This document shows, in pieces, positions 2,208-60,950 of a stretch of 64,000 nucleotides of DNA (position 1 is its first letter; each line of letters starts with the position of its first letter). Under the pieces are notes generated by a model. It searched no databases. It saw nothing but the letters and a program-made list of their open reading frames with translations, and was not told where the DNA came from. The stretch is from positions 353,524,001 to 353,588,000 of the forward strand of contig OZ024742.1 of NCBI GenBank assembly GCA_964016885.1. Direction: 5' to 3'. The position numbers and the translations under genes are program-made. The DNA comes from Eledone cirrhosa (Eukaryota).

Positions 2208-3400
2208 AGAAAGTACGTCCATAGAATCATTTGATAAAATATATACAGTATTTCCTCTCCCAATCAGCATAATCAACCACACAAACAATCAACTAAACAA
2301 GGAACCTATGAAGAAACAATAGATAAATAAACTATAGCTATCTATCCGCGATAAACAACGACAGGATATTTACCCAGTATTTATATTAGCCCGTGGATAT
2401 ATCTAATCGATGATTAGATATATCGCCAACCATACACAATTAGGTACAAAATCAAAGTTAGAATAAAAAAATGTATATAAGCATACCAAAATTATGTCTC
2501 TACCCCAGATGTTTCATTCGCTTTTTGGAAATATCCGATCAAGGATAAATTCACGAGTTTCGAAATCACCAGGAAAACAAACTCAATTTGACAAACATTT
2601 TTCTTAAATGATCCCCGCCAGAAACGAATTCAAAATGGCTAAGAACTGTGACGTGGTTAGAAGTGAAGTCAGAAAGTGTGTGATTGGTGCCTTACGGCGA
2701 GTGGCATGGTTGCTAGAAAGCGCAGCCTAATACTGCCTAAATTGTTTCTAAACGATATGGGAGATTTTCAAATATATAGGTTTATATATACATAAACTAG
2801 ACAGAGCCATATATATATATATATATATATATGTGTTTTTGGCAACCATTCATGGTGTGGCTCAATGACGAAATAATTAATTAAATAATCCACAATCAGA
2901 ACAATATACAAGAAAGTACGTCCATAGAATCATTTGATAAAATATATACAGTATTTCCTTTCCCAATCAGAATAATCAACCACTTTCTGACTTGACCAGT
3001 AGCCACGTCACAGTTCTTATGGGGTAGAGACATAATTTTAGTATGCCTATATACATTGTTTTCTTCTAACTTTGATTTTGTACCTAATTGTGTATGGTTT
3101 GTGATATATCTACTCGATTTCCATGGGCTATTAGAAATACTGGGTAAATATTCTCTGGCTGTTGATCGCGGATAGCTATCGTTTATTTATCTATTGTTTC
3201 GTCATAGGTGGCTTTTAATCTTATAGCCTTGTTTAATTGATTTTTGGGGTGGTTGATTATGCTGATTGGGAGAGAAAATACTGTATATATATTATCAAAT
3301 GGTTCTATGGACGTACTTTCTTGTATATTGCTCTGATTGTTAATTATTTAATTAAGTAATTCGTCATTGAGCCACACCGTGAATGGTTGCCAAACACACA
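2050..3400. repeat. Interspersed repeat family with fold-back arrangement
   Basis: ~2205-2505 is inverted at ~3020-3330 and ~2830-2980 is inverted at ~3250-3400. A further opposite-strand copy lies at ~12600-13130. Confidence 0.7.
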
Positions 3401-3434: not shown

Positions 3435-3556
<122 letters not shown>

Positions 3557-4255
3557 ACGCCATTTTTATCTTATCTGTTTATTTATTTATTTATGTTTGT
3601 CTTCTTCTCTACCCATGGGTTTGCGTGTGTGCATATTGTTTCGTGTGTCTGTTTGCGTTTGGCTGACTTTGTTTTGGTTATTGTATTCTCTCTTAGTTTA
3701 CTAGTGTGTGTTTATATGTGTTTGTTGTTATTGTGCTTGTTTATATATTTATTTATATTTACAGAAACACAATAACAACAAACACATATAAACACACACT
3801 AGTAAACTAAGATCGAATACAATAACCAAAACACAGTCGCCCAAACCCAAACACACACACCAAACACTATACACACACGCAAACGCATGCGCATAAAAGA
3901 AGACAAAAATAAAGAAATAAATATATATATTTATATATATAGGAACATAATCAAAACCACGACGGCAGAGTTCAAGCCGTTTCGACGGCTATTTCTCAAC
4001 TAAACTTAAAAAAAAAGAAATTACAAATTTCAACTTAGTCCAGAAAGAGCCGTCGAAACTGCTTGAGCTCTGGAGTCGGGGTCATAATTATTTTCCTATT
4101 ATCCACTCTACTAACTAAAGTATCGAGTACACTGATGCGTTATCGTCCACCTGGTTCCGTAACACACTTCCTTCGTTATATATATATAACCCAGAAAAAA
4201 GAAAAAGTGAAAAAAAAAGTTTTTCTTCCTAATAATCGTCTTGTTTCCCTGTTTT

Positions 4256-4321
<66 letters not shown>

Positions 4322-4502
4322 ACAATAACAGAGAAAGCCGTAAGCTATACTCTGACTGGCTACGATCTCACTCAATAAACATTAGGATATACCTTAGTAT
4401 AATCCCAATTTAATGTTTGGCGTGCTAACTATATGTATTTTGTGGAAAGCCAGTTGCATTATTTTATATGAGATATAATTAAAATTAAAATATATCTCTC
4501 TT

Positions 4503-4624
4503 TCCAAACAATTGTTTCATTACAAGTTTTCTACAAGTTGGGAGAATGCGTCCGGTTTATGTAGAAGCCTACATATTTTCCTGTAAAAACATATGCAGGT
4601 GGGCACATATAAATCATCAGTGGA
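4503..4624 (-). ncRNA. Type I hammerhead ribozyme, intact core, 95-nt stem II domain
   Basis: Minus strand reads UCCA-CUGAUGA-U-UUAUA...UGUAA-U-GAAAC-AAUU-GUU-UGGA. Stem I is UCCA/UGGA, stem III is the palindrome ACAAUUGU, and there is an internal hairpin UAUGUAG-GCUU-CUACAUA. Confidence 0.75.
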
Positions 4625-5243
4625 TGCCCGTCAAACATTGATAAAGAAAAAATATTTCTTACCGCTGTTAGTTTTCGTGTTAGCAAATTATTCCTTCACA
4701 CATCATAATGACCGCCAAATTTGAAATTCCAGCAGTCTCAGAATGAGGAATTTCACAGCGTCACGAAGCGGAAAAGGGAGGCAATCGCGAAACACAAGAA
4801 AGTAAAATAATTTACACGTGTGTCAAATTCATTTTTTCAACAACATTAACCCTGCGTGTTAAGAACTCAATTAGATTTTTAAAAAATAAATGTATGCATG
4901 TATTAATTATACACGCATATAGATATTTTCTTAGGCTAAAAACAGAGATATGATACCAAAATAAGAATCAATATTTCATAATAATAATAAATACGGAAAT
5001 TTACGCTTAAAAGGTATCTGGAAATATACTTATCTGGCCAAATCAAGAGTAAAATATTCAATACAATAACAGAGAAAGCCATAAGCTATACCTTGACTGG
5101 CTACCATCTCACTCAACAAACATTAGGATATACCTTAGTATAATCCCAATTTAATGATTGGGGTGGTAACTATATGTGTTTTGTGGAAAGCCAGTTGTAT
5201 TATTTTATATGTGATATAATTAAAATTAAAATATATCTCTCTT

Positions 5244-5360
5244 TCCAAACAATTGTTTCATTATAAGTTTTCTACAAGTTGGGAGAATTTGTCCGGTTTA
5301 TTTAGAAGCCTACATATTTTCCTGTAAGAACATATGCAGGTGGGCACTTATAAATCATCA

Positions 5361-5362
<2 letters not shown>
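5244..5362 (-). ncRNA. Second copy of the same hammerhead (5' strand of stem I truncated at the (TA)n junction)
   Basis: A-CUGAUGA-U-UUAUAAG...CUUAUAA-U-GAAAC-AAUU-GUU-UGGA, with a perfect 7-bp stem II base. Confidence 0.7.
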
Positions 5363-5442
<80 letters not shown>

Positions 5443-5751
5443 AATAAACAGCATGATACATAACTATTCCATTACACAAGGTTTCACGAAGTTAGACGAT
5501 TCTAACAGATATGTCATCAACTGAAATATCTATTTTAGAATAATGATATATAAAATGGCTCTCTACTATACATAGTGGACCCTTCTTACCTATAAATGTT
5601 CTACGAAAATACATTAACATATATACATATATATATAGGGAGTATAACTTGGATTTACCGTACGTTCACCCGGGTGAGCAATCGATGTTTAGGTTCACTT
5701 CCGTGTTGAAGTGTAGAGCTATATATTTTAGAGAGTTATATAGCATTTTAA

Positions 5752-5839
5752 AGGGTCCGCCGAGATGCAGATTATTGAGTCGGGTAAGATCGCTTCAGAT
5801 CGAACCTTGAGCTGATCAGTGGCGAAACGCGCGTCACCT
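5752..5839 (+). ncRNA. Degenerate hammerhead motif
   Basis: AGGGU-CCGCCGA(degenerate core)...GAAAC-GCGC-GUC-ACCU. Stem III is palindromic and stem I can pair; the core has 2 mismatches. Confidence 0.4.
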
Positions 5840-5885
5840 ACCAATAAATGTAATGAAGGAGTAACCATCGTCCTTGTTATCCTTT

Positions 5886-8737: not shown

Positions 8738-11467
8738 TTATTTTCAATGATTGTTTACATACATGACCTCCTTTCCAACACAAGAGACATCCAGAAACAT
8801 ATGTATATATCGATGTACAGTGGGGTGACATCCATTATAATATTTTAGCAGTGCAATTTACATTCAAAAATTAAAATCATATTAAAAGAAAATTAAAACA
8901 AAATTAAAGTTAAAATACAACATCGGCAGTTTACGAAGATAATGTAAGAGGATAGTTTGAAGTAGTTAGTGTATGCAATAGTTACACGTGGGGCATGCAC
9001 GTGTGTCTTATTTATATAAACTTAATGTGCGGCAAGGTGTTATATGCAATACAAGCACTTTAAGCGGGTAAACAAGAGTATTATGGGGGTTGTACTGGTA
9101 AAGTATTTTTTATGTATGATAAAAAAGCTTGTGTGCAGAGAAATATTAAAGATGAGAAGCAAAATAATGTTATGGTTTTCGTATAAACCACTATTTTCAA
9201 AATCCAGGAAACGTAATATATAGATTATATGTCCTTCACATAATTCACGATGATTCAGTATTGTAAGCTTGATGTATTAGGTTAGATTATTTCAACATGT
9301 TGTTCTTTAATCAAATTTTATAGAGCAGGTTGTTTTTGTTGCGAGAATTGACATCGTTTTATTTTCCGGAAGTATGTGTGTGATAAATGGGATTTAATCT
9401 TGAGGGGAGGTAACTATCTGATTTCTATAACTAAATTTATTATTCCAATGTACAGTAAACGGTATCCCAATTGAGCCCCTTACATATATGGTTATAAACA
9501 GTTTCCAAATTTAAGTATCCTATCTTTAAATTACAGTCTACTCTATCAAGAAATACTAATGGTATCCATATTAGGATGATTACCCTCTATCACAGAGTGC
9601 CACCACTAAATATTCGACATGAAGAGTCAGATCTCCAAATCAATGATCTTTGTAAATGTAGTCTACCCACAGAACCTGGCAGGGTTTTATTAAAACTACG
9701 TCTATATACAACCCCGGGTAAGCTCTGGGTCAGCGCATGTCTCATTGCATGGCAAAGTTAAATATCTCTAGGTTAGACCAGGGAGCAATTCTCACTTACA
9801 ATGTCATTAATCTGTCTATCAAGTCATTCATATATGCATAACTCATACACCACTTGTACATAATTCATTGTACTCAACATATAGGTTATATAGCTCTTTT
9901 ATGTTAATAAATTAATAAAGTAATCTTATATGTATCCAATGATGGCACTCCATAGACAGAACAACAATAGCACAAACAATTCAGTGTTTAAAGTTTACAT
10001 TTAATTATATAGTGGTGTACTGCAGTCTAAGTAATTGAATGCAATCATACTAAAAGTAGATGTACATAGGGATATTTCTAGGGTAAAAGGTTCTAGATAG
10101 ATGTGACAATTTTTGTTAAGATAGGGTGGATCATTGAGTGTGGAGTTTTGCTGTAATATGTGCCCTTGAGGTGTGTTGCTAGAAGTGGTGATGGGTTCAA
10201 GTCTGACGTTGCTATATATTGGGTTTAAAGTTTTGGAAGGAGTGTCGAAATCGGTGCTGGCATGACGCGGACACTTCTGATGTTGTATTAAGGAGGTTAT
10301 GGTTAGAGAAGGTAATAGTATGGGTCTCTAGTAGACAGAGGTTACAACAGTTATTAGGTGTTTTTTACGATGTCGCCTTACCTATCACTTCCCATTTAAG
10401 TGTATAAGATCTATTTTTAGTTTTTAGAAAGTGTGTATAGCTAGATAGTGAAGTGGAGTTGGCTAGACTGTGTTTTTTGAAAGAGTGGAGGTGCGAATTG
10501 TATCTGGTTTTGAAGCAGTTTGAAGTAGAACCTATATAGGTTTCAGAAGTGTTGCTAGTTGTGACGGTGCATGAGTATATGATATCCTTGATTAAGCATT
10601 TTGTATCTAAAGGCAGGTTCTATTAGATCTACAGTTACAATTATTCTGGGTGTTAGTCTGCCGGTTATTATGTTGCGTAGAAGTCAGGATGGTAGCTGTA
10701 GGATTATGGTTATGGGGGTTGTCGTTACTAGCGTTATTGCTTACACTAGTGCTATTACTATTATTACTATTGTTATCAGAGTTAATTGAAATAATGTTAT
10801 TTTGAAGGTTTACCGCCTGTTGTGATTTAGTTTGTTGGAAGTAAGAATTATTTTTTCTTTTATTGCTGCTAGCTATGTGGTATGCTATGTTAGGCGTAGT
10901 AGAGTAGGAGATTTTAATTGTGCTTTTGTTTAAAAGGCTTTGGCACAGATGGGAAGTGTTTTTATCTAGTAGTGAGAAGAAAGCCTTAGGTAGGTTGGTA
11001 GATACGTTTAGATTGAAAGGAGGGTTGAAAAATGTATTATTTCTTCTTCGATTTTTGTTTTTTTATGTCTGAGGATTTGTTTGCTTCTATGGTACTATAG
11101 TAACTTCTGTGGTGTGGGTTACTTTTGTTGGCATCCTTCGTATTAGTGTGTGTGTGGTTGCTATTCTTATTACTAAATTTCCTCATGGACATATTGTGCG
11201 AAATAATGTTGTAGCTATGGGTTTTAGCAGGTAGGAACTCGATCTCTATATTATGGCCTGATCTAGCTAATGCCTCATTATAATATTGCGAGTTTTTGCT
11301 AAATATGTTTAAGTCATAAGATAGATTAGAGATTCTATTAGATACTCCCTTAGAGATATAATTTAATATTGATCTAGGGTGGTTAGACTTGGTATCTAGG
11401 TAAATCAGTTTTTCGTTAGGTTTATGGAAAGGTGTATATATCTTTGAGTCTAGGTAGAGTGTGGCGT

Positions 11468-12259
11468 CTAAGAAGTTAACGTTTTTAGTGTTTTGTCTAT
11501 GGTGATACTAAGGTTATAGTTTTTGAATGTCCTGTGCAATAATTTTCTAGTTCTTTCTATATTGAATTTGTTATAGTCTATAAGTAGAAGTGCATCATCG
11601 CGGTACAAACCACCGTTGAGGTATGGAAGGTCCTTATGGATTTCGTTGAGTAAATATAGGCCGACCAAATCAGTGACCTGCGCCGAGTCACTAGATCCCA
11701 TTGTTATGTCAAAGTTGTTTTGCGTATCCTTGCGGGTCCATAATTGGTCTTCAAAAGTGATTACGGTTTTACGAGCCGCAAGTAGGACATCAATCTGGGG
11801 TCTAGTCAGGTCACTATTCTCCATGGCCATGATTAGTGCCTTATTTAATAGGATAGGGGAAATAGAGGTGTAGTATGACTTGATATCAAATTCAATACAT
11901 ATTTTATCCTTGTTATCCTTGATATCTTTGAACCATTCAATATCTTCACCCGTATTTCCCCATTGTTTAAGGTATACCTTGTGTTTAATCTGTGGGATGA
12001 TTTTATCTAAAATGTTCTTACTGATAATGCCAATATCAGACTTGGAAAGGCAGATAAGTCTAATCGAGGGGTTGCTAATGAAGGCCATGGATACGTGAGA
12101 CAACATAACCGAGATGGAGATAATAGCTACCAGATTATAAGAAAACCCCAGTTGTGATCTGAGAGAAAACACGTCAACAAGTGAATAAGGAGAAATACCA
12201 CGACGATATAATTTGTGGTAGACGCGCGTTAAAACAGATATGAAGAGCTTCCGATTCAA
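11468..12259 (-). pseudogene. PLE reverse transcriptase fragment
   Basis: Contains the YRDD catalytic motif and TMGS motif. The RT-like part begins near 12080 (NPSIRLI); the first ~60 aa are probably non-coding junction sequence. Confidence 0.85.
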
Positions 12260-12365
12260 GAATTAGGTACGATCATTAATAGATCTTTCCTGGAGCTGAT
12301 TGACAATTAAACATGTGTAATATGTAATTAAACAAATATATAAATATATGTCTCACTACTAATAC

Positions 12366-12496
<131 letters not shown>

Positions 12497-12529
12497 TGAG
12501 AGAGAGAGAGAATGAGAGAGAGAGAGAGG

Positions 12530-12607
<78 letters not shown>

Positions 12608-13508
12608 GTTTGGGCAATATTGGGCAGCGCTTTCTAACAACCAACTCACTCGCTGTAAGCAACCGATCACACTCTTTATAACTTCATCACTGCAAGGTCA
12701 CAGTTATTCGCCATTTTGAATTCGTGTTTGGCGGGGGTCACTTCAGAAAATAATGTGTCCTAGTGAGTTTGTCTCCTGACTAGTTTGAAGCTCGAGATTT
12801 CATCCTTAATAGGATATCTCAACATGCGGCGAAACCCAACTGTAGGGAGATTATCCTGGTATGTATATACGCATTTCTAACTTTAATTTTATATCTAATT
12901 GTGTATGATTGACCGTATATTTAATTGATTTCAACGTGCTGTTGAAATGTTGGGTAAAATTCTATAGCGGTTGGCCGCGAAGAGATTGCTATCGTTTATT
13001 TATTTACTGTTTCTTCATAGGTGCCTTTTAATATTATAGCCTTGTCTAATTGATTTTGTGTGTGGTTAATTATGCTAATTGGGAGAGGAAATGGTGTATA
13101 TATATTATCAAATGATTCTATGGACATACTTCATAGTATTATATATATATATACATATTCGGTTTGTTTGTTTGTAAATTACAAACAGCCCGAATTACGC
13201 CGTACAGTGTTCAGGCAACCATGGCCTCCCTATTGTTCAACGCTGACAGAGGAACGATGTACTAGTTTCAAGCTGATTAGCTATCGTCAGCATCGTATAC
13301 CATCCTGCCAGATTATTGAACGTCTGAAAGTATCTACTTTCCTCATGCATATCAACGGCTGAGCAGTCTAATTTGCAAATCGTTTCAGTTAGTCGGCCGG
13401 GCGCACCGAATACGATAAATGGGAAAGAATGAACTGAAATTTCATTTCTCACTCTTAGTACGGCTGATACTTAAATGTAAGTATGTATGTATACGTATAT
13501 ATTTTTTT

Positions 13509-21984: not shown

Positions 21985-22050
21985 GAAGAGAGAAGAAACA
22001 TTTAGATATAATTAGTAATAAGATGTATCATACCTAAACTGCTTCTAGAT

Positions 22051-22140
22051 TCCTCGACTACGTAGTTTCGCGGCATAAAAAAAAACAATACATCATAGAG
22101 ATATAGAGCTTTTGTGAGGTCTACCGACTTATCAAGAGGA
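22051..22140 (-). ncRNA. Degenerate hammerhead with ~60-nt stem II region
   Basis: UCCUC-UUGAUAA-GUCGGUA...UAUGCCGC-GAAAC-UACGUA-GUC-GAGGA. Stem I is a perfect 5 bp and stem III is palindromic. It lies in a ~400-bp element between (TA)n arrays. Confidence 0.6.
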
Positions 22141-22428
22141 TACCTCATTTTACTAGCTTCAAGAACACGTCTATAAGATGTGAGATAAAATCCCAAAAGG
22201 GGGAGGGGGAGTCAGTCACGTGATACAACGGTCAAGAAACAGAGCTAAGCCCCTTATAACCCCGAACAAAATACCACGGAGGCGGAGGGGGTATATATAT
22301 CGAGGCCGTAGAAGAGGTGGTTAAGGAGGGGAGAAGTATGAGTAATGGCAGCTTTCCAGCAGTCACTACACTTCAAAGATTACTCGACCAGGGGGAGTTA
22401 TAAACAATATATTGAGAAACACACACAC

Positions 22429-24889: not shown

Positions 24890-25962
24890 CGTAAAATAAG
24901 AAAATTATAGTAATTAACTCATTTACTTAAATTTCACCCCAACTAATTAGTTTCTTAAAGGGGATATACATAGTCCCCAGATAGAGACCATGGAGAATCA
25001 TTTTTTCTTCAGGGAGTCATTCTCGGCCAAGATTCCTGGCGATTCGCAGACACAGGGGTCGAATACAAAAATAATTCAGTGGATGGAAAAAAGCTAGCGT
25101 GGACTAAATCCCAAGCCATTGAAAACTTCACAGCCTTCCTGGTCAGTGGCAAATTCAAAAGAAACAATCACCTGAAATTGAGGTTAATCAGTGAGGAGTG
25201 GGGTGTTACAAAGACAGTAGCTAGGCTTAATACTATGAACCATATTAGTAATGTAGGCAAATTGTGCTCAACAAAATAATTTGGAGATAAAAAATCAGTA
25301 TATCTACCAACATATTTATACATATGTATACTTACGCTATAAAAGATATAAGTTTTGTCTTAGTAACTGTGTGGTGGGATACAAAGAGATGTAGAACAAT
25401 TATATAAAAGACGTAACATGAAAATTATAGTAATTAACTCATTTACTTAAATTTCACTCCGTTGAGAAAATTTGCCTAAATTACTACTATTGTTCTTAGT
25501 ATTATGTCTGGCTACTGTCTTTTTAACACCCCACTCCTAACTGATTAGCATCGATGTCACGTGATCGATTCTTTTGAATTTGCCACTGACCAGGGAGGCA
25601 GTGAAGTTTTCAATGGCTTGGGATTTAGTCCACGCTAGCTTTTTTACATCCATTGAATTATTTTTGTATTCGATCCCTGTGTCTGCGAATCGCCAGGAAT
25701 CTTAGCCGAAACTAACTCCCTGATAAAGAAATATTTCTCCATGGTCCCTATTTGGAGACTATGTATATCCCCTTTTAGAAACTAATTAGTTGGAGTGAAC
25801 TTTAAGTAAATGAGTTAATTACTATAATTTTCTTATTTTACATATTTAATATAATTGTTCTACATCTCTTTTTAGCGACCAACAAAGTTACTAAGACAAT
25901 ACATACATCTTTGGTAGCGTAAGTATACATCTGTATAAATGTGTTGGTAGATATACTAATTT

Positions 25963-30081: not shown

Positions 30082-30194
30082 CATGCTCTGACGAATAGAC
30101 TGGTTATAACAAAGTATTGGTGATCGATTGACGCAAAAACAGGCGGGTAGCGATCTCTAGACCTACCAATTCAGAGAAACAATTGTCAGCAATG
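30082..30194 (+). ncRNA. Hammerhead with 81-nt stem II region inside a small fold-back element (~29822-29970 / ~30097-30250)
   Basis: CAUGCU-CUGACGA-...-GAAAC-AAUU-GUC-AGCAAUG. The inverted arm preserves the ACUGGU/ACCAGU stem II pairing. Confidence 0.6.
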
Positions 30195-30242
30195 TGAATA
30201 AAGCCCTTATTGTATAGCAAACCATGTCACTCTTCTTTCTTG

Positions 30243-44823: not shown

Positions 44824-44932
44824 AGTCTAACAATTGTTTCTCTGATAAAGTTGTCTAAAAATTGCTGAGCACTAGAAGCAGGTGCCACTCAATTTCAAAT
44901 ACAATGCTAGCTCGATCAGATCTCCAGAAACT
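44824..44932 (-). ncRNA. Hammerhead-like motif with 80-nt stem II region
   Basis: AGUUU-CUGGAGA-UCUGAU...AUCAGA-GAAAC-AAUU-GUU-AGACU. Perfect 6-bp stem II base, one core mismatch. Confidence 0.6.
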
Positions 44933-49137: not shown

Positions 49138-51000
49138 GCAACCTAACCCTACCTAAATACAAACATATTGTTCCAACACATGATTTCATATAAAAAATTG
49201 CAAAACAAATACATAACCGCCACACATTATTATTCTCTTACGTTTAATTTCCTGTTATTTTTAGTACCCAATATTCATTTAATTCTATCTACTCCTTGCG
49301 TCGTTAGGGTTCGAATGACTGTTACAAGTGTAAAAAAATAATGTCCAAATACATACGATTAACCATCTTCAAGAAAAAGAAATATGCTGAAATCAGCATA
49401 TGAAATATTGATATCATAACATGGTTGAATCTATACAATTAATTATATATCTTCAATGCAGAATTCACGGTTGCTGCTCTAAAAATCAATATTAATCAAA
49501 CTTACGGAATAGATAAAGGTGAATACGTATATTTATGAGAATGGCAGTGATTATTAATTACATCCAACATTTTACGTGTAAACTTATAATCGACACCAGA
49601 TAAAATTAACATCAATGGAATATCATCTTAGACAATAAACGCAGGGAACTTAATAATGTGCAGTGAATGTACCCTCTCTCTGTCATTTGACTTACCTTAT
49701 TAAATTGTTCATCAGAATATTAATATTTGTAAAGTAATCTAGATATCAACCTCTGAATCATTGACAAGTCTGCTCCTCATGTACTTGTATGTCATCATAT
49801 TCTGAAATTAATTATGTACGGTTTCATCTATAAGGGCAGAATTACAGATATATATTAGTGTGTAAGATGATGTAATTAACATTCTTTACAGCGAATTAAC
49901 CATATCATTTCCCGAAAAAGTACCTTAAGTTATCTTGAAAATCTAGGAAATGCAGGAGATAAAAACAAAGTATTAAATATAATTTTTAACGGAGGAAGAA
50001 GGGCAGCATTTTTAAAGTAACATATATTTTACTAATACTAACTCATCTGTTGTAAGAGAAAAGCCATCGCTAACAATGTTTTAGAGATCATATATTTTAG
50101 AGGTGTTTATGGCAAACCAAAATAACTATTTAACGTAAATTCATTTAATCTTTAATTCTATCGCTCAGCAATATAGTCACTGCCTCCGTCTCTATCGCTC
50201 TCCCCATCTCACACTATTATAACCAAATAGGAGCCGCCCCTGACCTCGGTGCACAGAATAGAGAAAGCGTTTTCCTAGAGGATGTTGAGGGAAACGCGAT
50301 GGAAGAGACATTCCACCTCACCAGGCTTACACCTTTGTTTAGCTAGGGTGATGTTCTCTGACAATTTGTATTTAAAACAATATATATTACACTATGAAAA
50401 CCTGTCTTTGTTACAATTTATAATATTTCCCTTGTCACGTGAAAGAGTGGATAGATAAATCTCACTGTCTTCCTTTACACCATAGAAATTCAATGTCAAT
50501 TGATTTAGCTTTCTTGTTCCTGAGTATATTGACGTAAATCTCTATATATAAAACTGTGGTTGTCTGTCTGTCTATCAATTTTTGGCACACATCTCCTCTT
50601 AGAATCTCTCACGGAATTGCACCGAAATTGCTATACTTGTACATTGAGCCTTAGCGAAGACATCGGAAAAAAAATATTTCAAATTGACCCGCCCTATCTG
50701 ACGAAATCGAATATAATGTATCGATTTTTGAGCGTAAGTGATCAGTTATTTCCCTTTGTTCTGTTTACATTGAGCGTCTGCGTGCAAAAATTAATAAAAT
50801 TACGCGGGCTTTCTCAGCGTTTAAAATGACATTAACACAATAATTTTTACTTGAAAACAAGTCTATTTAAAGACTACATAAAACAAGCAAATATTTCGTA
50901 AAAAAAAGCAAAAATTATATAAGTTTATTTAAAATATATGTATCTGTAAATTTCGTTAGGCGTGCAGTCAGTTTTATATATATAGATGATAAACAATAAT

Positions 51001-51739
51001 ATCCTCTATGAGGTCACTAAACCTGCTAGAAACAGCAGCTAACTCTCCCTCATATCACACCACTCCATACTGTCTTAAATTTAGAAAACACATATCCTCT
51101 ATGAGGTTACTAAACCTGCTAGAAACATCAGCTAACTCTCCCTCATATCACACCACTCCCTACTGTCTTAAATTTAGAAAACACATATCCTCTATGAGGT
51201 TACTAAACCTGCTAGAAACAGCAGCTAACTCTCCCCCATATCATACCCGTCCCTACTGTCTTAAATTTAGAAAACATATCTTCTATGAGGTCACTAAACC
51301 TGCTAGAAACAGCAGCTAACTCTCCCTCATATCACAGCCCTCCCTACTGTCTTAAATTTAGAAAACATATCCTCTATGAGGTCACTAAACCTGCTAGAAA
51401 CAGCAGCTAACTCTCCCCCATATCACACCCCTCTCTACTGTCTTAAATTTAGAAAACATATCTTCTATGAGGTCACTAAACCTGCTAGAAACATCAGCTA
51501 ACTCTCCCTCATATCACACCACTCCCTACTGTCTTAAATTTAGAAAACACATATCCTCCATGAGGTCACTAAACCTGCTAGAAACAGCAGCTAACTTTCC
51601 CTCATATCACACCACTCCCTACTGTCTTAAATTTACAAAACACATATCCTCTATGAGGTCACTAAACCTGCTAGAAACAACAGCTAACACTCCCTCATAT
51701 CACAACCCTCCCTACTGTCTTAAATTTAGAAAACACACA
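51001..51739. repeat. Satellite, 8 copies of a 91-93 bp unit
   Basis: Unit ATCCTCTATGAGGTCACTAAACCTGCTAGAAACAGCAGCTAACTCTCCCTCATATCACACC...CTGTCTTAAATTTAGAAAACA(CA)T; starts at 51001, 51094, 51187, 51278, 51369, 51460, 51553, 51646. Confidence 0.95.
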
Positions 51740-52474
51740 GACAACCATGCAGAACAACTCCATCGCAGCTCTGTTGTTCGGCTGGCATCGTCTACTCGCG
51801 TGTTGCGCAAGTACTGTGAAACAATAAATTTCAACACTTTTTTGCACAGAGATAATATCCATAGGCGAAACTATAATTGTCACTTCTGGTGCAGCTCATG
51901 CTTCCAGGTCTGCAATTCATTCACCCAGTGCCTGGCAGACAAAAAAGTGCTGCAACCTAACTTTGGTAACTTAATGACCCCGAGCAACGCCGGGCTTTAA
52001 TGCTAGTAATCTATATATATGAAACTGTGGTTGTCTGTCTGTCTATCGATTTTTGGCACACATCTCCTCTTAGAATCTCTCACGGAATTGCACCAAAATT
52101 GCTATACTTGTACATTGAGCCCTAGCGAAGACATCGGAAAAAAATATTTCAAATTGACTCACCATATGTGACGAAATCGAATATAATGTAACGATTTTTG
52201 AGCGTAAGTTATCAGTTATTTCCCTTTGTTCTGTTTACATTGAGCGTCTTACGTAAAAAATTACGCTGGCTTTCTCAGCGTTTAAAATGACATTAACACA
52301 ATACACGAACAGTTGTCGTCCAGCCAGCAAAATATTGACCTGCAAAATTCATCAGTTCCAACACTAAGCTTCCGTTTTGCTTCATTTCCATTTAAAAGCA
52401 TTTTAAAACAATATTTTTACTTGAAAACAAGTCTATTTAAAGACTACGTAAAACAAGCAAATATTTCGTCGTTA

Positions 52475-56652: not shown

Positions 56653-56770
<118 letters not shown>

Positions 56771-56802
56771 AGATCAAAAGATGGTTAAAGGAGTTCCATG
56801 TA

Positions 56803-56869
56803 TTTTATTATGCGCATTTCAAAAACAAACATCATCATGCAATAATATTTGTGTTTTCATCAGATAAAA
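56803..56869 (-). ncRNA. Intact type I hammerhead ribozyme in pLTR
   Basis: UUUUAU-CUGAUGA-AAACACAAAUAUUAU...AUGAUGUUUGUUUUU-GAAAU-GCGC-AUA-AUAAAA. All core nucleotides are present and stem III is the palindrome AUGCGCAU. Confidence 0.85.
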
Positions 56870-59464
56870 CAGGAGAACATGATATGAAGGCTAAAAAACA
56901 CTTGTGGATAGTGCAGTTTTAAATCAACATATGAAAAGTAGTTTTAGATTGATGTGTGATATTGGGAAAAATATTTTATTTAGAGAGGGGTGGTGGAGAG
57001 GATGAAAAATGGGGAGGAGATGAGAGTGAAGTTGGAGAGGGAGAGATGGGTGATAGAGAGAAAGAGATAGTTTTTATAACTGAGAGAAGATATATTGTTT
57101 TACATAGAGAGGTTGAAAACCGTTGGAAGATAATGTATAAATTAAAAGAATTTGAAAATTAACGAAGGGAAAAATATGTACGAGGAAAAAATATTTTATT
57201 TAGAGAGGGGGGTGGAAAGGATGAAAAAAGGGGAGGAGATGAGAGTGAAGGTGGAGAGGGAGTGATGGGTGATAGAGAGAAAGAGGTAGTTTTTATAACT
57301 GAGAAAAGATATATTGTTTTACATAGAGAGGTTGAGAACCGTTGGAAGATAATGTATAAATTAAAAGAATTTGAAAATTAACGAAGGGAAAAAATATGTA
57401 CGAGGAAAGAGAGGGAGTTGATATGTATTGAGATTAAAAAGTTTGAAGATAGAGAGAAAAAAAAAATAATAATTGCGGATGAATATTCTAACGTCAAAAA
57501 GGTGTATGTTTATAAGTATTATGGCAATTTCAAAATTAATGAAGAGAACAAATTATTAAGGTTTGTGTGTTGAAGGATTTGAGAAAAATAATGTGAAGTT
57601 AAAGTTTGTATATTGAAGGAATTGATAATATGTGCGAAGAAAGAGTTAATATGTATTAAAAAAGTATTAAGGTTTGTGTATTAGATGATTTGAGAAAAAT
57701 AATGTGAAGTTAAGGTTTGTATATTGAAGGAATTGATAATATGTGCGAAGAAAGAGTTAATATGTATTAAGAATGAGTTATGTGATGGGGAGAAAAAATA
57801 ATAATAAATTAAGGATGAATATTCTAGCATCAAAAGAAGAAGAGGGAGTTAATGATTATTCTAGCGTCAAAAGAAGGAGAGGGAGATTAAAAAGTTTGAT
57901 GATGGAGAGAAAAAAATAATAATTGCGGATGAATATTCTAACGTCAAAAAAACAAATGTATATGTTATGAAGGATTTTACAAGGTGAAGATAGAATGAGG
58001 GTAATGAGTAAACAAGTATTATAGATTGTATAATGCCCTTTGAAGTAAGGTAGGAAGATGGGTATAATTTAAAGAGGTGTATGTATATGTGCCTTTGAGA
58101 AAAGATTCTAAATTGATATAGGAATTGAATATTAGCTGTATACTTTGTGAAAAGTCCTATGGAATTTATGCAGGCAGATAGAAAACAAATCTGTACGTCT
58201 ATTTATTATAGAATCTAGATTAGAGATAATGGTAAATTTTTCATTTAGGCAGAAATTACAGATTTTAGATAGAGAGCTGTTCAAGTATGAGGACGCAGAA
58301 GAAACCTTCTTCCAAAAGATGGTATATTTAATGTTTTTGTCTTTCAAGGACCATATGAGTTCTGAGAGAGCCGTGTTGGTTCGTTTAAGTTTGTATTTAA
58401 AAGATGAATGATGATTATAGTGACGAGCTTTAAAAGAGGTGGAAGTGGAGCCAAAATAGGTGAAGGAATTGGTGCTAGTTATAACTTTACATTCATAAAT
58501 TAAGTTTTTATCAAGACAATGGTTGTTGAGAGGACATTTATTTTTAATGCGGCAGTTGCAATTAGAGAGATTATTAATGAGTGACCTAGTGTTATCTATA
58601 GAAGGAATTGGATTGGAGAAGTTGTTTGCGATAGGAATAATAGGAATAATAGTTTCTTGATTTAGAGTTGGATTATGAACATTTAGCGAAGTTGTGTTTG
58701 ACGTTGTATTTGGGTTTACAAAAGTTAGCCTAGGGTTTACAATGACGTCGGGAGTACTATTACTGTTATTATGAAATTCAATGTTGGAAGGAAGAGATTT
58801 AGTATTTAGTATTTTATTGTTGTGTTTAGAGATAATGTTGGAAATATTGGAGGATGTAGAATAAGAACATTTGATGGTGTGTTTGTTAAATATTTTACTA
58901 TAGATATGTGAGGGAGGGAAGCATTTATTTAAGGCACTAAAAAATAATTTAGGAATATTGTTATTAATAGAGATGGAGAAAGGAGCATTATACCAGATTA
59001 TGTTTTTGTATCTAGGTCTTTTATTAAAGTTATTGGAATGATCATGATTAATTATTCTACTGTAAGTTTTTCTAGAATTTGTTTCTTTACTATATTTGAT
59101 TTTATCTGGATAACCGGCTTTAGAAAGTGCGTTATTATAGTAATTGGCGTTAGCATATTTTTTTCCCTTCGTTAATTTTCAAATTCTTTTAATTCATACA
59201 TTATCTTCCAACGGTTTTCAACCTCTCTATGTAAAACAATATATCTTCTCTCAGTTATAAAAACTATCGCTTTCTCTCTATCACCCATCTCTCCCTATCC
59301 ACCTTCACTCTCATCTCCTCCCCTTTTTTCATCCTCTCCACCCCCCCTCCCTAAATAAAATATTTTTCCCAATATCACACATCAATCTAAAACTACTTTT
59401 CATATGTTGATTTAAAACTGCACTATCCACAAGTGTTTTTTAGCCTTCATATCATGTTCTCCTG

Positions 59465-59531
59465 TTTTATCTGATGAAAACACAAATATTTTTGCATGAT
59501 GATGTTTGTTTTTGAAATGCGCATAATAAAA
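59465..59531 (+). ncRNA. Intact type I hammerhead ribozyme in inverted pLTR
   Basis: Near-identical inverted copy of 56803-56869. Confidence 0.85.
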
Positions 59532-59684
59532 TACATGGAACTCCTTTAACCATCTTTTGATCTTATATATTATGTATACTCCAGTCCTACAAAATGTAGA
59601 GTGCTTCTTATCCGATATCTGCATTGCTTTATTGTACTACAATAAAACTCACCTCCTACATTATATAAATATATATATATACTG

Positions 59685-59844: not shown

Positions 59845-60302
59845 TTTTTTTTTCTTTAGTAAGTAAGTTAATTTTTAACTTTTAACATTTTCTGATTTTA
59901 CGTCTTTCATATAATTGTTCTGCATTCACGTGCATAGAAACACATAGGTACTAAGATATAACTTATAGATTTGCTAGCATGAGTATACATCTGTACACAT
60001 ATGTTGGTAGATGTACTAATTCTCTATATTTATCTCCAAATTATTTCTTGAGCAAAACTGGCCAAAATTTACTGCCGTTTCATGGTAGTAGCAGGCTGTT
60101 GTCATAATACCAACCCGCTCCTAACTGATTAACCTCGGTGTCACGTGATTGATTCTTTAGAATCTGCCACTGACCAGAGGCAGAAAACATGTTTCAGTGC
60201 TCCGGAATTTAGTCCACGCTAGCTTCTTTCCATCTACTGAATTATTATTTTTATATGGGTTCCTAGTGTCAGCGCATTGCCTTGGAACTTAGCTGAGAAT
60301 AG

Positions 60303-60388
60303 ACTCCCTGATGACGTAATGAATTCTCTATGGTTATATATATTATGTAACTATATTTATCCCATTACAGAAACTAATTAATTGGAGT
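60303..60388 (+). ncRNA. Hammerhead with ~55-nt stem II region
   Basis: ACUCC-CUGAUGA-C-GUAAUG...CAUUAC-A-GAAAC-UAAUUA-AUU-GGAGU; same family as 24936/25715. Confidence 0.7.
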
Positions 60389-60950
60389 GAAAATTTTCGT
60401 AAGTAAGTTAATTTTAATTTTTTAAAATTTTCTTATTTTACGTCTTTCATATATATATATAGACCAACACTGGGGGGAACTAAAAGGACGACAAAACGGG
60501 TCAGTACTGTACGAACATGCTAGACAACAACATGACGGTAACATAGACAACAGAGACATTAGAATAATATCTAAGCATAGAAATGACCCAGCAGATAGGC
60601 AAATCAGAGAGGCCAGTGAAATAGAAATTAGAAGACCAAAGCTAAACAGAAAGAATGAATGGAATAACAACAACACCCAAACAAACAACACTGACCTAAG
60701 AGAAGTATAAATAAGTAAATAAAATAAGATAAATAAATAAATAAATAAATACATAAACAAGCACAATAACAACAAGCACATAACACACACACTAGTCACC
60801 ATCACACAACAAACATAACACTATATACACACGCAAGCGCATGCGCAAAGAAAACAAAATAAAATAAACAAACAAGCAAATAAATAAATATATAGACAGA
60901 CTGAATAAAAATGGCGTAGACATACAACACAACAGGAGGAAAATATAACA

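Follow-up and report, generated by a model that had tools for sequence, protein, structure and literature searches.

Hammerhead motifs in the window

The window, i.e., the whole 64,000-nt stretch of Eledone cirrhosa DNA that we analysed, carries a hammerhead motif on its minus strand at 4503–4624, read in the order UCCA, CUGAUGA, 95 nt, GAAA, ACAAUUGU, GUU, and UGGA. The 5′ strand of stem I (UCCA, 4621–4624) pairs with UGGA over 4 bp and is followed by the catalytic box CUGAUGA (4614–4620). The 95-nt stem II domain (4519–4613) has a U.U at 10.1-11.1, a 7-bp basal helix (4612–4606 with 4526–4520), and a three-way junction, with hairpin 1 at 4568–4599 and hairpin 2, which has a UUCUACA/UGUAGAA base, at 4529–4566. 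The GAAA box, palindromic stem III, GUU triplet, and UGGA occupy 4503–4518, and the cut is predicted at 4507/4506. Directly 5′ of stem I lies GGGCA (4625–4629, minus strand), which may pair with the junction strand UGCCC. All features of a type I core were found on 4620–4503 (CUGANGA, GAAA, A15.1-U16.1, and an NUH triplet); three helices surround the core and stem I is open, as judged by the pairing of all three stems and by the compensatory changes that they show.

The motif belongs to an insertion at 4318–5361 (minus strand), in which a 741-bp non-coding unit is repeated in tandem approximately 1.4 times, with (TA)n runs on both sides. The repeats are identical at 286/303 positions and the longest stop-free frame is 68 codons. 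The insertion starts at the core (5361) of a second, 5′-truncated hammerhead (5244–5361, minus strand), which has the same 95-nt domain (5260–5354) and has lost its 5′ stem I strand at the (TA)n junction.

An Rfam scan of the window returned 117 matches at E ≤ 1 with no hammerhead among them; as the short-stem hammerheads of the window were missed too, this result reflects the models. A strict motif scan demanding a paired 10.1-11.1 also missed the window motif.

The initial annotation listed segments of 95, 81, 80, 59, 60, and 51/55 nt between the boxes, all of which were present at its coordinates, with the 4519–4613 motif on the minus strand. A family B hammerhead with an 81-nt interrupted-hairpin stem II and a GUC site lies at 30084–30192 (plus strand), and another with an 80-nt stem II, whose core has decayed to CUGGAGA (44927), at 44824–44927 (minus strand). 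The family D hammerhead at 5753–5840 (plus strand, 60-nt stem II) has the decayed core CCGCCGA (5757), with intact relatives elsewhere (locus L050). The 59-nt stem II at 22050–22142 (minus strand) is part of a hammerhead with the U3-A8 variant core UUGAUAA (22135), a variant already described (PMC4209133). This core at 22129–22135 (minus strand) is shared with locus L097 near 4380, also with a 59-nt stem II. An inverted pair with 51-nt stems (24930–25810) comprises a motif with an intact core at 25012 (minus strand) and one with G8A, CUGAUAA, at 25720 (plus strand); a hammerhead of the same family with a 55-nt stem II and a damaged stem III palindrome is located at 60300–60390 (plus strand). 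Most long-stem-II copies in the window have decayed cores.

Other repeats were also observed. At 56756–59578, inverted repeats of 422 bp (98%) with 36-nt-stem hammerheads flank a 348-codon fragment of a Hydra-type endonuclease. A broken Hydra-type RT and endonuclease at 10224–13290 (minus strand) lies downstream of a compact 14-nt-stem hammerhead, a pairing that recurs in locus L067. A tandem repeat of 93 bp forms two blocks at 50906–51828, and an abundant repeat of approximately 200 bp (repeat families D12 and D15–D18), found across 16295–62730, is SINE-like and, we presume, resembles cephalopod SINEs.

Genome-wide counts and families

We searched the 3.0-Gb genome with the pattern CUGANGA + N insert + GAAACAAUUGU and used the reversed pattern as the control. 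Inserts of 75–105 nt gave 5,902 matches versus 4 in the control, and those of 45–74 nt gave 1,806 versus 7; taken together, the genome contains approximately 7,700 motifs with inserts of 45–105 nt versus 11 controls. These counts are limited to a single stem III and the standard core, omit U3-A8 cores such as that at 22129–22135, and contain some copies that carry deletions or were counted twice. For inserts of 106–136 nt, there were 193 matches versus 5 in the control, mostly truncated or rearranged among the 100 matches listed; judged from these, almost no genuine motifs have inserts above 105 nt.

A 634-kb scan yielded 123 type I motifs with inserts of 12–14, 26–36, 45–51, 60–63, 75–83, 90, and 93–100 nt, from loci that were picked for long motifs and so give no estimate of frequency. 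Clustering separated family A (93–97 nt), which includes the 4519 locus, family B (75–83 nt), family C (90 nt), family E (94–98 nt), and families D and F (57–63 nt), among them the copy at 5764, as well as smaller families. Insert length was held tight within a family, as in A and C. The initial annotation had regarded all families as otherwise unrelated; this fails for the copies at 30095 and 44841, which are joined via intermediates into one family B (54 aligned copies, 71% mean column identity). Short-stem families (e.g., 12–14 nt) coexist with the long-stem families in the same genome. Position 10.1-11.1 was usually mismatched, with U.U in 76/77 family A inserts; U.U at the stem II base is also present in published Hydra-clade hammerheads (PMC8557442, File S2).

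The genome contains at least 3,610 family A anchors, and in contigs of runs X1/X2 (one sample) the repeat was present in high copy. In the sister subfamily A4, the unit measures approximately 693 bp, the site is GUC, and stem III is longer; a rare A4 variant used as the query gave 1 and 33 matches. One family A insertion recurs many times with >97% identical flanks on contigs C20, C27, and C16 (L004–L012, L016–L023, and L027–L030) and is thus carried in a large segmental duplication. Two further families were seen, one at L110:819 with a 70-nt stem II and a 14-nt palindromic stem III, and one at L084:4511 with a 100-nt insert, for which a second three-way junction is predicted.

Host elements

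Each of the two terminal repeats of a 3-kb element (locus L075) carries a family C motif; these hammerheads, at 3245 and 6231, flank an ORF at 3493–5813 with one frameshift. This single ORF encodes an RT followed by a C-terminal GIY-YIG-type domain and, with the hammerhead-bearing pLTRs and a length of approximately 3 kb, represents the layout of Hydra-clade Penelope-like elements (PLEs). Its translation contains RWR for RWK, DKT, a CxCX5C linker, and CxxC..CxH, and the element is inserted at (TA)n; RWK-like, DKT, CxCX5C, CxxC/CxH, and (TA)n are characteristic of this clade (PMC8557442, section 11). The protein has 52 homologs, the two named ones from Apostichopus and Hydra. Pfam gave a weak RVT_1 match in 1/4 proteins and otherwise none. 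Family B is linked to similar ORFs in L079, L094, L100, and L074. In an RT tree of 45 sequences, which comprises our own and metagenome sequences only and one third of the metagenome loci, families B and C were sisters with 100% support and a 12-nt-stem element was placed in a different clade; the EN tree (10 sequences) was too small to read. By layout and protein hallmarks, families B and C are Hydra-clade PLEs.

The family A unit is non-coding, 730–743 or 978–1,015 bp long, and arranged head-to-tail. Its 3′ end is fixed at (TA)n and its 5′ ends vary; 15 tandem pairs spaced 730–1,015 bp were found among 85 anchors. With one type I hammerhead per non-coding tandem unit, as in retrozymes, family A appears to be a retrozyme-like 0.7–1 kb tandem. 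No ORF-bearing relative of its tail, i.e., an autonomous PLE partner, was found among the loci examined, and locus L229 was rejected as a partner as it is a separate neighbouring insertion.

AAUAAA was observed 4–10 nt past the predicted cut in families B, C, and D (e.g., window 30190–30205) and was absent there in family A. A pyrimidine-rich stretch and AG lie directly 5′ of stem I in L042, L038, L031, and L058, a possible 3′ splice site, comparable to the intron end at helix I of Drosophila Penelope.

Fold of the stem II insert and its covariation

RNAalifold of 34 family A copies predicted a three-way junction consisting of the 7-bp base, a hairpin CCU..AGG, and a hairpin UUCUACA/UGUAGAA. 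All three helices formed alone at probability >0.5 in 72% of 120 distinct family A inserts. The base stem had been described as 7 bp; it pairs 7/7 in the domain at 5260–5354 and in most relatives, but 6/7 at the 4519 copy, which has one U.U, counted after U10.1.U11.1. The initial annotation had also proposed internal hairpins CCUG/CAGG and UAUGUAG/CUACAUA. As a conserved fold, these were not sustained: 72% and 89.5% of cells were paired, covariation was 0.049 versus 0.048 for shuffled columns (280/500 shuffles as high), and the model folded at −7.9 versus −14.1 kcal/mol for the three-way model. Likewise, a branched stem II is supported for family A but not as a general trait; families B, C, and D fold as long interrupted hairpins, and branching is predicted for two families besides A. 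In single-sequence folds, z was −2.25 for the 4519–4613 insert and −2.39 for the 60300 copy, and 9 of 11 others besides the former were at −0.9 to +0.5.

Covariation was scored against shuffled columns. The family A set comprised 42 representatives (41 chosen at <95.5% identity from 135 candidates, and one added), in which 95.6% of cells were paired and 7/29 pairs showed two-sided changes; the score was 0.180 versus 0.108 shuffled, with 0/500 shuffles as high. Two-sided changes occurred in 4/9 pairs of hairpin 1 and in 2/7 pairs at the base of hairpin 2, which was 97% paired. A first set of 34 closer copies gave a weak signal (2/38 pairs two-sided, 32/500 shuffles as high). The long interrupted hairpin of family B was 88.6% paired with two-sided changes in 10/19 pairs (54 copies), and its score was 0.367 versus 0.218 shuffled (0/500 as high), whereas slid controls paired at 28–44%. 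The alignments of B and D exclude three atypical rows.

Column shuffles ignore relatedness; therefore, we counted events on trees, with the expectation taken from random pairable columns. Compensatory events on internal branches numbered 2.6 versus 0.3 expected in family A (3/400) and 4.3 versus 0.8 in family B (0/400), for structures partly derived from the same alignments, and pair-breaking changes were mainly on terminal branches. In a pairwise, tree-corrected, R-scape-like test of families A and B, no single pair reached E<0.05, as expected because there are few subfamilies. The check across genomic copies that had been suggested at the outset was positive for aggregate scores and tree events in A and B, but not for any single pair.

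Outside the insert, stem I of family A covaries, with UCCA/UGGA changing to CCCA/UGGG in sister subfamilies, and the stem III palindrome ACAAUUGU is replaced by ACGAUCGU in 11/138 copies and by ACGGCCGU in 1/138. As the core and stems I and III covary within family A, selection acted on the hammerhead fold including the insert. These results support that the fold of the stem II insert was kept by compensatory change, in aggregate.

Conserved unpaired bases and a candidate contact

In family A, the GGG 5′ of stem I and the junction GCCC were each kept in 38–41/42 copies, with variable neighbours. GGGCA/UGCCC was 91.5% paired in this family and also formed in the predicted MFE. Among the 42 family A copies, 0/4 pairs of the GGGC/GCCC helix had two-sided changes; that is, the two strands never changed together. 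On inspection, no similar contact was seen in families B, C, and D. The two strands may form a pseudoknot or an early inhibitory hairpin, for which they are a candidate in family A.

In family B, unpaired GUA and GAC were kept in 50/54 copies, exceeding the paired-column mean of 0.78, and A56 and G80 were conserved at 94–98%. GUA and GAC resemble a bulged-G (loop E) motif. An AGU(N)/(N)AG-type loop was seen by eye in B, C, D, and F. Stem I–stem II pseudoknots activate approximately 40% of hammerheads, and U10.1.U11.1 is tolerated, according to PMC3088659.

5′ ends of copies

We compared the 5′ ends of copies with the predicted cut site. Among 85 family A anchors, 16 had 5′ ends within 41 nt after the site, 3.1-fold the upstream rate, and 8 of 30 A4 copies had ends just downstream of it, which is 5.7-fold denser. 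At (TA)n junctions (100 of 341 matches), 18/26 family A starts were at −2 to +7 and 2 at −12 to −3; with a strict boundary, the same starts gave 13 versus 6 (p=0.17). At A4 junctions (100 of 302 matches), 3/17 starts were exactly at the site, with 10 at or after it versus 7 before. Subfamily B1 showed no step at the site (9 versus 10 of 19 ends).

The excess is confounded by ATATAT at +9 to +11, which has microhomology with the (TA)n target, and RT stalling at the fold could be an alternative source. Many copies read through the cut site. Most A4 copies end well short of the upstream cut site; the proposal that they never pass it was dropped, as 2/4 copies reaching it pass by 7 and 34 nt. Overall, with mixed evidence, the 5′ ends hint at cutting in family A only. 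In L050, L051, L053, L057, L060, L075, L099, and the window (5361), copies start, or switch to an inverted sequence, within a few bases of CUGANGA, in loci that were picked for an intact core, so that an excess is not established.

Possible role of the stem II domain

PLE hammerheads are known as minimal motifs. We tentatively prefer, from sequence comparison, the explanation that the stem II domain acts as an accessory and may tune a weak dimer-type ribozyme, in family A via the contact between GGGC/GCCC and the stem I flank. A fraction of multi-unit transcripts would be cut into units by a weak, dimer-dependent type I hammerhead; two motifs would pair through the palindromic stem III and then cleave, as has been demonstrated for other PLE hammerheads. 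The core would be weak by design, with U.U or A.A at 10.1-11.1, GUU, a 4-bp stem I, and no canonical loop 1. In family A, the junction GCCC and the GGGC upstream of stem I may form a pseudoknot that replaces the missing loop I–loop II contact; alternatively, they may hold the core shut in transcription until the 3′ half is made. Other families would likely obtain the same effect from their own conserved internal loops. However, the window copy has its energy minimum in a fold other than that of the hammerhead (z −0.78 for the full 4519 motif), which counts against this explanation.

It is also conceivable, although somewhat unlikely, that the domain is bound by the RT-endonuclease of the element (or a host protein); binding would promote or gate cleavage and tag the RNA for retrotransposition. 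The conserved internal loops of family B resemble protein-recognised motifs, the AGU(N)/(N)AG-like loop recurs across four families, and non-coding family A retains the domain in at least 3,610 copies; in addition, the hammerhead of an anole PLE cleaves only with its protein (PMC11167929). However, family A is without these loops, the shapes are wholly different between families, close relatives with 10–25 nt stems retrotranspose, and short-stem families coexist in the same genome. Alternatively, the insert may be a tolerated passenger, where selection only keeps stem II folded on itself and the core undisturbed: lengths form a continuum of 12–100 nt in one genome, sequences are unrelated between families, internally deleted copies occur, and compensatory pairing alone is expected. 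We consider this unlikely, as unpaired bases exceed paired ones in conservation in parts of B and A, lengths within families are tight, and the matches drop from 5,902 to 193, mostly rearranged among those listed, above 105 nt.

That the motifs are inactive relics, conserved through a DNA-level promoter or recent amplification, is consistent with the decay of most window copies and with read-through of the cut site in many copies, and mutants of the anole PLE hammerhead were without effect on insertion in vitro (PMC11167929). Meanwhile, stems I, II, and III all have two-sided changes on internal branches, a signature of RNA structure, and pair-breaking changes are chiefly terminal; we judge this explanation highly improbable.

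These may also be natural allosteric hammerheads, in which a sensor-like stem II domain lets the element's own protein or a folding switch toggle cleavage, such domains having arisen more than once in the lineage; we consider this unlikely. Stem II is the grafting position used in engineered aptazymes. The families provide natural series (12 to 100 nt; GUU versus GUC; short versus long stem III) that suit direct tests of how a peripheral domain affects cleavage and protein binding. As at least 7,700 matches in a single genome have a stem II 2–4 times the descriptor limit, censuses of animal ribozymes and retrozymes miss whole families.

Comparison with relatives and known systems

We compared 78 metagenome loci encoding relatives of the L075-type protein (best 80 of 434). 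A sense hammerhead was present in 54/78 loci and absent in 24, with 0 in the reversed control, and 62/65 motifs had 10–25 nt between the boxes; the three longer inserts (35, 64, and 118 nt) were poorly paired or inside the ORF. By this sequence comparison, only this genome, among the sampled relatives, has the stem II expansion. Since relatives in other hosts move without one, the long domain is not required by the clade.

The published descriptor of minimal hammerheads allows a stem II of 3–7 bp and a loop of 3–10 nt, with a maximum of approximately 26 nt (PMC4209133 supplement). The inserts here (45–100 nt) fall outside the stem II criterion for PLE minimal hammerheads, whereas the palindromic stem III agrees with their dimer criterion. 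The claim of the initial annotation that a recurrent expanded-stem-II subtype lies beyond standard descriptors is thus supported: this limit is far exceeded, Rfam is silent, and the fold was kept by compensatory change. A stem II of 60–100 nt or a branched one was not found for animal PLE hammerheads in the literature searched; its absence from print is unproven and long variants may be present in supplements. Long-stem-II hammerheads are apparently undescribed, but both the ribozyme of which they are a variant and their class of elements are known.

The PLE minimal hammerheads of Cervera and de la Pena (2014, PMC4209133) are alike in being type I with a short stem I and a palindromic stem III, in their thousands of dispersed copies, in their presence in both pLTRs, and in an occasional U3-A8 core. 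As described there, helix II has ≤7–8 bp and a short loop, whereas here it spans 45–100 nt and contains either internal loops or a three-way junction, and their G10.1-C11.1 is mostly mismatched here. The Hydra-clade hammerheads of Craig et al. (2021, PMC8557442) share the protein hallmarks, (TA)n targets, and U.U stem II base; however, the Hydra entries of their File S2, octopus included, have approximately 12–28 nt between the boxes versus 45–100 nt here. The longest File S2 entries (approximately 50 nt) belong to spike-moss PLE-X, are flagged as deviating, and lie outside Hydra elements.

In the discontinuous Clec2 hammerheads of mammals, similarity is confined to tolerance of a large insertion, which reportedly sits in stem I. 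According to PMC6765202, this insertion is hundreds of nt of UTR between the two halves, whereas here a length-constrained, conserved stem II fold occurs in a mobile element. Pseudoknot-stabilised hammerheads (Perreault et al. 2011, PMC3088659) likewise have a helix that joins the flank of stem I to the region of stem II, as proposed for family A; however, they have short stems, and the family A partner is the junction strand above an 8-step stem II, without covariation.

Finally, metazoan non-LTR retrozymes (Cervera and de la Pena 2020, PMC7229834; Li et al. 2026 preprint) resemble family A in their non-coding head-to-tail repeat, one type I hammerhead per unit, copies of more than a unit, and likely movement by PLE proteins. 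Family A, at 730–1,015 bp, is at the top of the 51–972 bp range of retrozymes (Li et al. 2026 preprint). Known retrozyme hammerheads, as described in these sources, are compact, whereas family A has a branched stem II of 93–97 nt.
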